The translations under genes were made by a program, and so were the position numbers. Shown piece by piece: positions 13,832 through 22,411 of a DNA stretch of 64,000 bases (the stretch's first letter is position 1; each line of letters opens with the position of its first letter). This stretch comes from Candidatus Saccharimonadota bacterium (GTDB taxonomy: Bacteria; Patescibacteriota; Saccharimonadia; Saccharimonadales; SZUA-47). Location of the stretch: positions 193,449-257,448 of the forward strand of contig CP065013.1 in assembly GCA_016700315.1 (NCBI GenBank). The letters run 5' to 3'. The notes under the pieces are model-generated. The model saw only the letters and a program-made list of their open reading frames with translations, did not search any database and had not been told where the DNA came from.

Positions 13832-13880
13832 AGGTGGGGACGTTCCCCACCTAAAAGCAAAAAGCCAGCTTTCGCTGGCT
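13832..13880 (-). terminator. tandem hairpins ending the 23S-5S unit
   Basis: On the minus strand, AGCCAGC-GAAA-GCTGGCT is followed by TTTTT (13859-13880). A second hairpin, AGGTGGGGA-ACG-TCCCCACCT, lies at 13832-13852. Confidence 0.65.
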
Positions 13881-13892
13881 TTTGTGCAAAAA

Positions 13893-14001
13893 TCGGCACC
13901 GTGCTATTTTCCCAGGAAAATCCTAGTATAGTAACCGCTACGAGGCTTAACTGCTGTGTTCGGTATGGGAACAGGTGTTTCCCTCGCGCCATGGGCACCG
14001 A
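13893..14001 (-). rRNA. rrf: 5S rRNA
   Basis: The reverse complement contains CCCATACCGAACACAGCAGTTAAGC and CCTGGGAA. The termini pair (TCGGTGCC/GGTGCCGA, with G-U pairs). Confidence 0.85.
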
Positions 14002-14024
14002 CTTCTTGCCACTGGCAAGAAGTA

Positions 14025-14094
14025 GAATGAGGAATGAGGAATGAGGAATGAGGAAATTAATCCATCGTTCTTCGTTCTCCGTTCTTCGTTCCAC
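14025..14094. repeat. heptamer runs in the 23S-5S spacer
   Basis: GAATGAG x4 followed by GTTCTTC/GTTCTCC/GTTCTTC-type 7-mers. Confidence 0.8.
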
Positions 14095-14555
14095 TTTTCG
14101 CCTAGCGAAAAGTATCGATGTCCATTTCTGGACGGTGAGTGTCAATTTGTTAAATAACAACGGTTCGGATCGCTTGATACGAACCAATAACTAGTCGAAT
14201 GATGCACCTTCACTATCAAAGAGCCAAACCCAAGCAAATGGATTTATCTCCTTGATCTTAGAAAGTCAATGGCCCTATTAGTACGCTTCGGCTGAAAACA
14301 TTACTGCTCTTACACCTTGCGCCTATCAACCTGATCGTCTTTCAGGGGGCTCCATGGGGAAAACTAATCTTGAGGTCAGTTTCGCGCTTAATATGCTTTC
14401 AGCGCTTATCTGCTCCGCACGTAGCTACCCAACAATGCAAGTTGATCTCACAATTGGTACACCAGCGGTGCGTCCATCTCGGTCCTCTCGTACTAGAGAC
14501 AGATCCTCTCAATTTTCCTAGCGTCCACAGCGGATATAAACCGAACTGTCTCACG

Positions 14556-15336
14556 CGTGTCATCAAAAGGGCGTTCTATTCCTTTCAAATCATCCGCCAT
14601 TACTGGCGGCACGGACTATATCTTCATCCTTAACCTGTTTAGTATTAGTTAAGGCGCTGACGTTTTATGGCCGCTCGTTAAAGCAACCATCCTAGATGAA
14701 GTGGTCTAACATTCATCTAAAGTCTCTACGGGGAAAAGTCTATTGTCGTTCAAGTAGCGTTTCAGGGTTTCAGACGTATTGGTTCGCTTCTTTGAATAAT
14801 TAAATTCTGCGGTTTTATCAACCAGTGAAGCGAGCCGAAGCAACTTCTTAGCTGTCATCTTCTTAGGATGAAGACTAATTAGTCGCAAGACTTCTGAAGC
14901 TAAACGTTTCTTTAGACGAAGTTTTGGATAAAGTAGCTTTAATACTTTTTCTACTTCATTCAAGCCCACGATGGTGTATTCGACCATGCCGTCATTACGG
15001 CTGCGAATGTAACCGAACTGGAGCTGCTCTTTTAACCAAAAGAGTATTTCTTGGTGGCTGTGCTTTTGATAAAACACAATACTAACTCGAATCTGATAAC
15101 CAAGCCTATAGTCCTTACGGGCTACCAGTTGGGCCATGATCGAGCCGTCACCATCTAGAAATCCGGCAATATATGCCGCTACTTCGTCAGACATTTTCCT
15201 AATCTTCCCTCGGTATTGCCCTTCTCATCGTTCGGAATGAGATTCGGGTTTCACCGATTTCAGTCAGATTTAGTATCATTAGTGCGATGTACACTGATAC
15301 TTTACTACTTTACAGTAGTAGAACGCAATGTAATTT
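14556..15336 (-). mobile_element. group I-like intron in 23S rRNA encoding a homing endonuclease
   Basis: It interrupts GGGTTCAGAACGT | CGTGAGACAGTTCGG. The 5' exon ends in U and the insert ends in G (...GATGACACG). Confidence 0.75.
14706..15194 (-). CDS. LAGLIDADG homing endonuclease (single-motif type)
   Basis: 162 aa with the motif YIAGFLDGDGSI, located entirely inside the 23S insertion. Confidence 0.85.
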   Translation of the reverse strand: MSDEVAAYIAGFLDGDGSIMAQLVARKDYRLGYQIRVSIVFYQKHSHQEILFWLKEQLQFGYIRSRNDGMVEYTIVGLNEVEKVLKLLYPKLRLKKRLASEVLRLISLHPKKMTAKKLLRLASLVDKTAEFNYSKKRTNTSETLKRYLNDNRLFPVETLDEC

Positions 15337-19672: not shown

Positions 19673-19699
19673 AAAAAACGCCGCTCAAAAAGAGCGGCA
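19673..19699 (-). terminator. rho-independent terminator just after 16S
   Basis: The minus strand reads GCCGCTC-TTTTT-GAGCGGC followed by GTTTTTT, about 150 nt past the 16S 3' end. Confidence 0.65.
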
Positions 19700-19978
19700 C
19701 TGAGTTTAAAAATTGAGTTGTGAACGTCAACGATTACTCATGGTTCCTCATAGATTCTTGGCCGAGTTATTGCCAAAAATCGAGGATCGCCTGGCTACCA
19801 TCAATGTTCAATTGAGACACTGATAGCGCCTGATTTCTCCCTAGAAAGGAGGTAATCCATCCGCACCTTCCGGTACGGATACCTTGTTACGACTTAACCC
19901 CAATCATCCCCCCTACCTTAGGCCGAAGCAAAGTTCAGACGTCAGGTATTGGTGACTTTCATGGCTTGACGGGCGGTG

Positions 19979-20788
19979 ATTGCAATCTGGTAATTACAGT
20001 TGCTCCCCACGTAGCATGCGCGTCTAACGCACTACGCGAGTCTTCATGTTTTTTATTGCTCAAATCTGTTCTACTCCTTCAACAGTCAAGTGCTTTTTGG
20101 TTCTTACTAGTTCTGCCGCTAAGCAAAATTTTTCAAAACTATAAAGCTTCTTGGCTCTCGGAGGATACTTTTTAAAGAATGGAATTATCTTACCATCAAT
20201 ATCTTGGAAGTTACTGACCTTGTACTTAACATGAGGCCGCCATTTGGCGTAACGCTCATAATCAAGGCGGTAAATATTACCGCAGTTCAATACTTCTTTG
20301 ATTTGATGCAAAATTTCTTCATCATCCTCGCGAAGTTCGATTTCAAAAATCAATCTCACTTCAGGTAATCTTGGTCCGTTTCGATTGATAGTAATGCTAA
20401 AGCATCCCTCTCCATCAACAAAACCAACGATGTAATTTGGATCCAACATGAAGTTCGTCCCTTTCCTCTATTATATCACAATAACAGAGGTACTACGGAC
20501 TCAGCTGACTTCCTTATGCTATCCGCCAACTGGCGGAAAAATCACAATTTCACATAAGGATCTCCTTGGGTTACGCTGGAAAACTGTTTCAAACATTCCT
20601 TGCTAGGCTTTTCTAATCGGCCTCTTCTCTTGTGTACACATTGCAAGATCGAAGCGCCTTTTGTATTGCAAAGACTGCTTTTTGTATATAGAGCCCTTCA
20701 GACATTCTGTTACCAGAGATGTCCTGCTCGCAACTACTAGAGTGGATTTACACCACTTAGCTTTCCGCGCTGCCAAGCGCATTTATTT
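19979..20788 (-). mobile_element. intervening sequence in 16S rRNA encoding a homing endonuclease
   Basis: It splits the universal block GTACA | CACCGCCCGTCA. Boundaries are within about 3 nt. Confidence 0.7.
20060..20449 (-). CDS. LAGLIDADG homing endonuclease (single-motif type)
   Basis: 129 aa with the motif IVGFVDGEGCFSI, located inside the 16S insertion. Confidence 0.85.
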   Translation of the reverse strand: MLDPNYIVGFVDGEGCFSITINRNGPRLPEVRLIFEIELREDDEEILHQIKEVLNCGNIYRLDYERYAKWRPHVKYKVSNFQDIDGKIIPFFKKYPPRAKKLYSFEKFCLAAELVRTKKHLTVEGVEQI

Positions 20789-22194
20789 TGTACAAGACCC
20801 GGGAACGTATTCACGGTAATGTGCTGACTTACCGTTACTAGCGATTCCAGCTTCAAGCAGGCGAGTTTCAGCCTGCTATCCGAACTGAGACCGGCTTTGA
20901 TGGGATTAGCTCCCCCTCGCGGGTTGGCTGCCCTTTGTACCGGCCATTGTAGCGTGTTTGTAGCCCCAGACGTAAGGGTAATACTGACCTGACATCATCC
21001 CCTCCTTCCTCCCCGTTACCGGGGCAGTCTAGCTAGAAAAATCCAACTAACTATAAGGGTTGCGCTCGTTGATGGACTTAACCAAACATCTCACGACACG
21101 AGCTGACGACGGCCATGCAACACCTGTCACCGAGTTCCTTGCGGCACAGTATCCTTTCGGATGCCTTCTCGGGATTTCAAGCCTGGGTAAGGTTCTTCGC
21201 TTACCATCGAATTAAACAACACGCTCCACCGCTTGTGCGGGTCCCCGTCAATTCCTTTATGTTTTAAGCTTGCGCTCGTACTCCACAGGCGGGGTGCTTA
21301 ACGCGTTAGCTTCGCTACAAAGAGGGTCGATACTCCTTACAGCTAGCACCCATCGTTTAGGGCGTGGACTACCGGGGTATCTAATCCCGTTCGCTCCCCA
21401 CGCTTTCGTGCCTTAGTGTCAGTATTGGTCCAGTTATCTGCCTACGCCATCGGTGTTCCTCCAAATATCTACGGATTTCACTCCTACACTTGGAATTCCA
21501 ATAACCTCTACCAAACTCTAGTCTGCCAGTTCAAATAATAGCCTTGAGGTTAAGCCCCAAGATTTCACTATTTGCTTAACAAACCACCTACGCAACTCTT
21601 TACGCCCAGTGATTCCGGATAACGCTCGGATCCTACGTATGACCGCGGCTGCTGGCACGTAGTTAGCCGATCCTTATTCATTTGCTACTGTCATAATCGT
21701 CACAAATAAAAGCAGTTTACGACCCGAAAGCCTTCATCCTGCACGCGGCGTTGCTCCATCAGGGTTGCCCCCATTGTGGAAAATTCCCTACTGCTGCCTC
21801 CCGTAGGAGTCTGGGCCGTTCTCAGTCCCAGTCTGGCTGATCATCCTCTCAGACCAGCTAAAGATCGTCGCCTTGGTGAGCCATTACCTCACCAACTAGC
21901 TAATCTTACGCAGGCCGTTCCCAAAGCGCCCGAAGGCTTTAATCCGAAGACCATATGCGGTATTAGACACCATTTCTGGTGCTTATCCCTCACTTTGGGG
22001 TACGTTCCTACGCGTTACTCAGCCGTCCGCCACTCGACATCATTCTCACAAAAGCCCTGAAAAACTTTACAGTAATTCCGAACCTTAGTGAGAACATGTT
22101 TCCGTTCGACTTGCATGTATTAGGCACGCCGCCAGCGTTCATCCTGAGCCAGGATCAAACTCTCCAAAAAAATTGATTAAAAATCAATTTTTGG

Positions 22195-22272
22195 AACGAT
22201 GAATTTTGAATGGCGAACGAGGGAAATTTCATTGAAACTCCTTCATCGTTCATCGTTCGTCGTTCATCACTC
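22195..22272. repeat. heptamer runs in the 16S leader
   Basis: GAACGAT GAATTTT GAATGGC GAACGAG, then TTCATCG TTCATCG TTCGTCG TTCATCA. Confidence 0.75.
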
Positions 22273-22383
22273 CTTAGCTCTGTTTTCTTAAAAACAAATT
22301 AAATTAACGTTGACGTTTCACGACTCAATTTTTAACGATCTGTCTTGGGGCTAAAAAAGCCTCTGATTTTCAGAGGTACTTAA

Positions 22384-22411
22384 ATTATAAGCTCCAAAAG
22401 ACTCCATTCAA
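22384..22411 (-). promoter_or_regulatory. candidate promoter for 16S
   Basis: The minus strand reads TTGAAT-16 nt-TATAAT, about 215 nt upstream of the 16S 5' end. Confidence 0.4.

Follow-up and report, generated by a model that had tools for sequence, protein, structure and literature searches.

The subject of this report is the ribosomal RNA (rRNA) locus within a window of 64,000 nucleotides (nt) from a Candidatus Saccharimonadota bacterium (GenBank assembly GCA_016700315.1, contig CP065013.1, positions 193,449 to 257,448). The genes for 16S, 23S, and 5S rRNA share one strand of this window, and two transfer RNA (tRNA) genes, for tRNA-Ala and tRNA-Ile, lie between 16S and 23S on the other. 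From comparison with related loci, we think it likely that the locus is made up of separately transcribed units and that the tRNA pair, referred to below as the cassette, owes its orientation to an inversion.

Genes were called with Rfam models and with ARAGORN, run as separate tools. By Rfam, the 16S, 23S, and 5S genes occupy the minus strand in that order, which is where the initial annotation of this DNA had put them, with the 16S 5' end at 22170 and the 23S 5' end at 18408. The Rfam matches to 16S and 23S end prematurely because both genes are interrupted. The real 3' end of the 16S gene, GGATTACCTCCTTTCT, was read from the sequence at about 19845; the 3' flank of the 23S gene lies at 14200, and the gene reaches about 14201. 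The spacer between 16S and 23S runs from 18409 to 19845, about 1.44 kb. The genes of the locus, including an open reading frame (ORF) of 62 amino acids (aa) in the spacer, are the following.

19845-22170, minus strand: 16S rRNA gene, interrupted (Rfam; 3' exon and GGATTACCTCCTTTCT read from the sequence)
14201-18408, minus strand: 23S rRNA gene, interrupted (Rfam; splice junctions read from the sequence)
13891-14002, minus strand: 5S rRNA (Rfam, 87.5 bits)
19051-19127, plus strand: tRNA-Ala(UGC), first cassette gene, antisense to the rRNAs (ARAGORN; Rfam, 71.9 bits)
19206-19282, plus strand: tRNA-Ile(GAU), second cassette gene, antisense to the rRNAs (ARAGORN; Rfam, 69.2 bits)
19437-19625, minus strand: gene for a 62-aa small protein with two predicted transmembrane (TM) segments (IPO96_00985), between the putative 16S terminator and the tRNA cassette (ORF call, homologues)

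ARAGORN and Rfam agree on both tRNA genes, and the claim that these are encoded on the plus strand, in the order Ile then Ala when read along the rRNA strand, was correct. Their strand departs from that of a canonical operon, in which spacer tRNAs share the strand of the rRNAs. Both have intact anticodons and an encoded CCA end, and ARAGORN found no further tRNA-Ala(UGC) or tRNA-Ile(GAU) gene in the window. An identical layout was present in three independent assemblies of related strains, at 95 to 99% identity, and an assembly artifact was therefore rejected.

Transcription signals in the window and in related loci

Relatives were gathered by two collection scans with a Saccharibacteria-type 16S 3' end, which yielded 137 distinct loci after deduplication, each extending 300 nt or more beyond 16S. 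The other matches of the first scan served as controls; these were mostly from Pelagibacter, with the canonical order 16S-Ile-Ala-23S and the 23S about 420 nt away. Apart from contigs of the same species, the nearest relative recovered showed about 91% 16S identity. The 16S-23S spacers of Saccharibacteria are long and variable, from about 0.7 to more than 9 kb, with many exceeding 1.5 kb, and long or interrupted spacers are the rule in the phylum. The candidate transcription and processing signals of the window, with lengths of paired regions in base pairs (bp), are listed below.

22410-22438, minus strand: probable 16S promoter TTGATT-17-TATATT, followed by a conserved GGAGTCTTTTGGAG leader element (promoter scan and comparison)
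22308-22334, minus strand: 5' half of the 16S processing stem, containing boxA-like TTAAAAATT (sequence pairing, alignment)
19707-19732, minus strand: 3' half of the 16S processing stem (sequence pairing, alignment)
19677-19701, minus strand: intrinsic-terminator-like hairpin and T-run, predicted to end the 16S unit (scan: 10 pairs, 6 of them G-C; fold, comparison)
19006-19034, plus strand: candidate tRNA cassette promoter TTGTAA-17-TAAAAT, its -10 ending 16 nt upstream of tRNA-Ala (scan and comparison)
18845-18873, minus strand: candidate 23S-5S promoter TTGACT-17-TAAGAT, its -10 preceded by TG, pointing away from the tRNA promoter (scan and comparison)
18758-18832, minus strand: conserved 23S leader hairpin, TTGAGTTTAGG ... 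TAAACTCAA (inverted repeat and alignment)
18578-18596, minus strand: 5' half of the 23S processing stem (19 nt fully complementary to 14182-14200)
14182-14200, minus strand: 3' half of the 23S processing stem (perfect 19 bp with 18578-18596)
13860-13883, minus strand: terminator-like hairpin and T-run, predicted to end the 23S-5S unit (scan: 10 pairs, beginning 8 nt past 5S)

The strongest evidence that 16S transcription normally ends behind the gene is a hairpin that follows the processing stem throughout the phylum. In the window, the hairpin at 19701-19677 on the minus strand has a stem of 8 to 10 bp with 6 G-C pairs and a 5-nt loop and is followed by TTTTTT; it was the best terminator-like site of the region scan, and an 81-nt segment around it folds as predicted (z score, -3.4). 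A terminator had been claimed at 19673-19699, and the scan, the fold, and the conserved position in relatives all support a terminator-like hairpin there, at 19701-19677; a canonical operon has no terminator between 16S and 23S. The hairpin starts 6 nt past the trailer half of the 16S stem, and across relatives the corresponding hairpins start a median of 7 nt past it. A strict hairpin plus T-run, located 120 to 280 nt past 16S (median, +170), was found in 80 of the 137 distinct loci, against 0.1% of shuffled sequences, and looser rules raised the count to 98 of 137, against 3.5% of shuffles. Since the 80 strict hairpins comprise 77 distinct sequences, structure and position are conserved and sequence is not. 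Only 4 of 84 non-Saccharibacteria controls had a hairpin after 16S. None of those four, two of which are labeled Rickettsiales, has a detectable 23S nearby, and no control in which 16S and 23S are linked showed one.

About 25 relatives have TTGACA-17/18-TAnnAT promoters to which the probable 16S promoter is homologous, both in where it lies and in the motif that follows it. Another site, TTGAAT-16-TATAAT at 22411-22384, was considered and rejected as the 16S promoter; the homologue in the clade is the one at 22438-22410, just beyond the end coordinate of the region first annotated. A terminator-like hairpin with a T-run also lies in the 16S leader (22360-22376, minus strand), just downstream of the probable promoter, and relatives have a different hairpin, of the form GGAG...CTCC, at that place.

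Both large rRNA genes are flanked by complementary sequences, which were read from the sequence. Stems were compared by local alignment against the reverse complement; RNAduplex applied to 250-nt flanks gave over-extended, uninformative duplexes. At 16S, the stem described as about 26 bp came out as about 25 bp between 22334-22308 and 19732-19707, interrupted by a single bulge and a single mismatch, and its local alignment score is 45 compared to 17.6 ± 2.2 in shuffles. All 49 relatives' loci having both 16S flanks contain such a leader/trailer stem (median z score against shuffles, 13). The 19-bp stem reported around 23S is indeed perfect. The initial annotation had taken these stems as a sign of separate transcription, and this does not hold, because co-transcribed operons such as rrn of Escherichia coli also carry a stem around each large rRNA. 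Copies of TTAAAAATT occur in both leaders, at 22323-22331 (minus strand) for 16S and at about 18693-18701 (minus strand) for 23S, and we take them to resemble the boxA of rRNA antitermination. Of 67 relatives, 18 have a related motif, TTWAAMAATTTGG, about 100 nt upstream of 23S; the rate in shuffled sequences is 1%.

Two divergent promoters had been proposed within the spacer, and each proved to lie inside a conserved block. That of the 23S, at 18873-18845 on the minus strand, belongs to a block consisting of TTGACY, nCCTCTGTTA, the -10 TAAGAT, and then CTTGAGTTTAGG, which is common to 11 relatives (L239, L154, L135, L137, L167, L010, L211, L177, L226, L127, and L218); the 23S leader hairpin recurs downstream of the block in the same relatives. 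A different clade has TTGCAA-17-TATAGT about 300 nt upstream of 23S. Because the 23S promoter block is also present in loci with sense tRNAs, a separate start for 23S would be a trait of the phylum and not a repair that followed inversion. Duplication of the 16S promoter and leader as the origin of those of 23S was rejected, as their local alignment score of 19 does not differ significantly from 20 ± 2.3 in shuffles.

The cassette promoter, at 19006-19034 on the plus strand, shares its TAAAATACATCGGTAGT block with the sense loci L127, L181, and L226 and with the antisense loci L138 and L155. In most of 115 loci, a TTGnnn-17-TAnAAT sequence ends about 15 to 32 nt before the first tRNA of the cassette, whether Ala or Ile comes first and whether the cassette is sense or antisense. 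A terminator of its own ends 38 of 100 cassettes, typically 7 nt after the CCA. Since the cassette carries its own signals, it could be flipped without harm. The leader of each tRNA also pairs with its own trailer, lengthening the acceptor stem (19189-19295 and 19043-19133, both plus strand); the extension is about 15 bp for tRNA-Ile (fold z score, -5.7), and structures of this kind may serve in precursor processing or termination.

The two marks of a functional split, a terminator after 16S and a separate 23S promoter, are both found at the sequence level and both are conserved in relatives. The division into three transcription units, consisting of 16S, the tRNA cassette, and 23S-5S, is well supported in silico, and the comparative evidence upholds the original proposal, in which 16S and 23S-5S form separate units and the antisense tRNA pair lying between the two is transcribed independently. 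The locus would then be a chain of self-contained transcription units and not a single operon. The promoter at 22438-22410 would drive the 16S precursor, whose leader and trailer would pair into the stem of about 25 bp, a probable substrate of ribonuclease III by analogy with other bacteria, and transcription would stop at the hairpin and U-run at 19701-19677, 6 nt past that stem. The 62-aa gene, on the rRNA strand, would probably be expressed from a weak promoter of its own or by leak-through at the terminator. The tRNA cassette would be autonomous, transcribed on the opposite strand from the promoter at 19006-19034 and converging on the 16S unit. Back to back with that promoter, the one at 18873-18845 would start the 23S-5S unit, made up of a 430-nt leader, 23S, and 5S and ending at 13883-13860. 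This modular design would be the norm in Saccharibacteria, with repeated flips of the cassette within the phylum, and the window appears typical of the phylum in its layout, a well-preserved case and not an anomaly.

Orientation of the cassette and competing readings

Cassette classes were counted on the 107 classifiable loci with both tRNAs, with the order read along the rRNA strand.

Ala then Ile, sense: 65 loci
Ile then Ala, sense: 32 loci
Ile then Ala, antisense (the layout of the window): 9 loci
Ala then Ile, antisense: 1 locus

This genome is not alone in its layout, which 9 of the 107 loci share. Antisense tRNAs were confirmed with ARAGORN and Rfam in L012, L028, L047, L083, L138, L143, L155, L164, L167, and L172. 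One of these, L167, matches the layout of the window completely, with 16S on the minus strand, Ile and Ala on the plus strand, and 23S and 5S on the minus strand.

The initial annotation had argued against a single inversion as the explanation of the layout. That argument assumed an ancestor with Ile before Ala and fails here, since the commonest cassette of the phylum is sense with Ala before Ile, and one flip of it gives exactly antisense Ile followed by antisense Ala. The cassette of L172, with Val, Ile, and Ala all antisense, is an exact mirror image of the Ala, Ile, Val type, which is common, and the cassette of the window, promoter included, is colinear with the sense cassette of L127. 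On a neighbor-joining tree of 16S sequences, the antisense loci (the window, L138, L167, L083, L143, L172, and L028) fall in different places, each with sense loci as neighbors, which argues for at least six independent flips. The orientation in the window is thus most simply explained by one inversion of a sense Ala-Ile cassette, a history that appears most parsimonious across the phylum and is less certain for the window's own lineage. A site-specific inversion switch was rejected as a cause; only short, weak inverted repeats were found, none at plausible breakpoints, and all four assemblies have the same orientation. Downstream of tRNA-Ile, in the region 19364-19424 of the plus strand, are two fragments that resemble tRNA 3' ends, GCCCACCGGGCA at 19366-19377 and CCACCAAATAATC at 19412-19424. 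The related strains L122 and L123 have a 49-nt insertion at 19364/19365, and L131 has a duplicated tRNA 3' fragment and a terminator. The fragments and the 49-nt indel are likely scars of cassette rearrangement.

Several points weigh against three independent units and a single flip. Every promoter and terminator in the locus is a prediction, and the 14 promoter-like sites found in the region are not above the 12.4 expected by chance, so that promoter calls gain weight only through conservation in relatives. The spacer, at 1.44 kb, is just below the 1.5-kb cutoff used in the literature for unlinked genes. Antitermination complexes can pass terminators, and with boxA-like motifs present, some read-through from 16S to 23S is possible. 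Neither the region scan nor the rule applied to the 100 cassettes found a plus-strand terminator for the cassette of the window, and transcription from this cassette may extend, antisense, through the small ORF and into the trailer of 16S. As to history, L131 alone among the relatives resembles the window in its 16S trailer and in having the small ORF, and its cassette is sense Ile-Ala; a flip of that order gives antisense Ala followed by antisense Ile, which is not the order in the window, and the immediate ancestor may therefore have differed from a sense Ala-Ile cassette.

A reading that draws on several of these points is that the locus is still one operon, in which a polymerase that starts upstream of 16S and carries an antitermination complex passes 19701-19677, crosses the stretch with the antisense tRNAs, and continues into 23S-5S, with the 23S promoter only secondary. 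Consistent with this are the adjacency of 16S, 23S, and 5S in order on one strand, the spacer of less than 1.5 kb, which would count as linked, the boxA-like motifs in both leaders, and the general occurrence of stems around each rRNA in E. coli rrn. However, the position of the terminator is conserved across the phylum in 77 different sequences, which argues for its use, and the hairpins seen among the controls are confined to the four loci without a detected 23S nearby. The 23S promoter block is conserved as well as the 16S promoter is, in many relatives 16S and 23S lie kilobases apart, with protein genes reported between them in TM7x, and a convergent tRNA promoter would bring head-on collisions with a polymerase traversing the spacer. 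We regard a single operon as unlikely and favor separate transcription of the three units. The latter would be unchanged if the arrangement had arisen by another route, either through two events from a sense Ile-Ala ancestor like L131 or through insertion of an Ala-Ile cassette that took the place of the spacer tRNAs. Such a route, for which we see an appreciable although minor chance, would fit the cassette of L131, with its similar trailer and the same small ORF. It would also fit the tRNA-end fragments and the 49-nt indel, which point to several steps of rearrangement, and the interleaving of sense Ala-Ile and sense Ile-Ala loci around the window on the 16S tree. Against it, one flip of the commonest cassette type yields the observed layout, the colinearity with L127 extends to the promoter, and the antisense classes are skewed 9:1 in the same direction as the 65:32 of the sense classes. 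That the antisense tRNAs reflect an assembly error, or are decaying copies with functional genes elsewhere, is highly improbable. Regions of rRNA are hard to assemble from metagenomes, and in L122 the divergence changes abruptly, and suspiciously, within 16S, but four independent assemblies agree and ten loci of other species also carry antisense tRNAs. Moreover, both tRNAs score about 70 bits with intact anticodons, encoded CCA, and a conserved promoter, and neither has a second copy in the window.

Small spacer gene, rRNA insertions, and flanking features

The 62-aa membrane ORF that had been noted in the spacer was found again at 19437-19625 on the minus strand. A word-indexed search matched it only to itself, and its resulting status as an orphan was overturned by an exhaustive HMMER search, which gave four homologues (P0002 to P0005) of 59 to 70 aa with 41 to 45% identity and E values from 8e-7 to 6e-4. 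The family of about 60-aa proteins with two TM segments follows the pattern KR.LKA..W......G..G...YY..V.PNK. The homologue in L131 is at the equivalent position (4530-4712, minus strand), 40 nt past the 16S terminator of that locus, and two other family members are in contigs whose called genes all encode proteins. The small homologues and the counterpart in L131 indicate that the ORF is a real gene for a small membrane protein lodged in the spacer. No convincing Shine-Dalgarno sequence was found upstream of it, and a possible extended -10 (TGcTATTCT) ends 6 nt upstream of its ATG; there are hints here that the mRNA may be leaderless.

The initial annotation gave the layout of the rRNA genes correctly and left out the insertions with LAGLIDADG ORFs that are present in both 16S and 23S.

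19979-20788, minus strand: 16S insertion of 810 nt, after E. coli position ~1396 (sequence reading)
20060-20449, minus strand: single-domain 129-aa LAGLIDADG ORF in the 16S insertion (Pfam LAGLIDADG_1, 1.8e-23; PDB matches)
14556-15336, minus strand: probable group I intron of 781 nt in 23S (upstream exon ending GAACGT, intron ending ACG, downstream exon beginning CGTGAGACAG)
14706-15194, minus strand: 162-aa LAGLIDADG ORF of the I-CreI/I-MsoI family in the 23S intron (Pfam PF00961, 9.4e-11; PDB)

The 23S intron matches RF00028 with 32.7 bits (E value, 2e-05), below the gathering score of 50; U precedes its 5' splice site, its last base is G, and the exons rejoin to conserved rRNA sequence. 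Its 162-aa ORF matches I-MsoI, I-CvuI, and I-CreI, homodimeric enzymes with solved structures, over the full length at E values of 1e-20 to 1e-26. The host introns of these enzymes sit in 23S genes, and the junction of GAACGT with CGTGAGACAG is presumably the I-CreI site. The intron described here differs from theirs in having a bacterium of the Candidate Phyla Radiation (CPR) as host. The 16S insertion gave no Rfam group I match and has no U before its 5' junction and no terminal G; it is preceded by A, ends in T, and is followed by C, unlike a group I intron, which follows U and ends in G. Just 5' of its ORF, an 82-nt segment matches RF01998 (group-II-D1D4-1) with 41.3 bits, above the gathering score of 35, and no domain V match reached the gathering score in Rfam. 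This insertion shows neither a recognizable ribozyme core nor the canonical splice-site bases of a group I or group II intron. The other full-length 16S genes measured, from 52 loci, are 1,466 to 1,575 nt long and have no insertion. In the same-species contig L122, positions 1-1014 correspond to 20789-21802 of the window, and this first 16S exon is 10.5% different, whereas the insertion and spacer differ by only about 0.5%. Either a chimeric assembly or recombination or homing that moved the insertion and spacer between lineages would account for this jump.

Long imperfect hairpins in which GAACGA-type repeats pair with CAUUCC-type ones occupy both the gap between 23S and 5S (14003-14125, minus strand) and the 16S leader (22171-22300, minus strand), with z scores of about -3.3 each. 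Matches of the 14003-14125 hairpin to plant microRNA families were below threshold and were dismissed as spurious. Immediately downstream of the 5S terminator is a gene for an IS30-type transposase with HTH_38 and rve domains (12662-13684, plus strand). Between the two, at 13694-13761, the minus strand has a promoter-like site and a terminator-like hairpin about 20 to 45 nt apart.

Significance and comparison with known systems

Earlier publications have described split rRNA loci in this group and, in Borrelia, a spacer tRNA on the antisense strand. For the conserved junction of stem and terminator, the promoter-bearing cassette, and its repeated flipping, we found no description, and a literature search on Saccharibacteria and spacer tRNAs returned nothing specific. 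The broader proposal is that across the phylum the operon is dissolved into three autonomous modules (16S with a terminator about 7 nt past its stem, a promoter-bearing tRNA-Ala/Ile cassette that may include Val, and 23S-5S with its own promoter), that the cassette has flipped at least six times, and that this has not been described; we give the whole of it about an even chance. Co-transcription of 16S and 23S is the textbook means of balancing the ribosomal subunits. In a phylum where transcription stops behind 16S and starts anew ahead of 23S, the balance must be reached otherwise, presumably through similar promoters and leader elements. If the proposal is true, rRNA stoichiometry in these reduced-genome episymbionts would be set by matched promoters and not by co-transcription. 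The layout would also explain why 16S-internal transcribed spacer-23S amplicon methods miss or mis-size Saccharibacteria, and the locus supplies exact predicted positions for transcription starts and stops.

Patescibacteria are among the clades reported to be rich in unlinked rRNA genes, defined by a cutoff of >1,500 bp (Brewer et al., bioRxiv 10.1101/705046). The rRNA operon of TM7x is described as interrupted by pyrD (2025 preprint, PMC12424978), and the largest 16S-23S spacers are reported from Saccharibacteria (PMC10402275). The passages searched in these three reports contain no description of a post-stem terminator, separate promoters, or tRNA orientation. The window resembles the unlinked rRNA genes of the CPR in belonging to the same phylum, in its unusually long spacer, and in that its 16S and 23S are very probably not co-transcribed. 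It differs in that its 1.44-kb spacer falls short of the >1,500-bp definition and holds one small ORF in place of genes such as pyrD.

In Borrelia, tRNA-Ile lies opposite to the rRNAs, between 16S and 23S-5S (PMC4370689). The two arrangements are alike in that 16S stands apart from 23S-5S and an antisense spacer tRNA is found just upstream of 23S-5S. According to the Borrelia figure legend, which is silent on the orientation of tRNA-Ala, only tRNA-Ile is antisense there, and 23S-5S is tandemly duplicated. In the window, both tRNAs would form one antisense cassette with a single promoter.

The E. coli type of rrn operon runs from a promoter through 16S, tRNA-Ile, tRNA-Ala, 23S, and 5S to a terminator. 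The locus described here shares with it the order and strand of the rRNA genes, the two species of spacer tRNA, the stems that enclose both large rRNAs, and boxA-like motifs in the leaders. It is unlike the E. coli operon in its predicted terminator after 16S, in its tRNAs on the opposite strand with a putative promoter of their own, and in its conserved candidate promoter before 23S.

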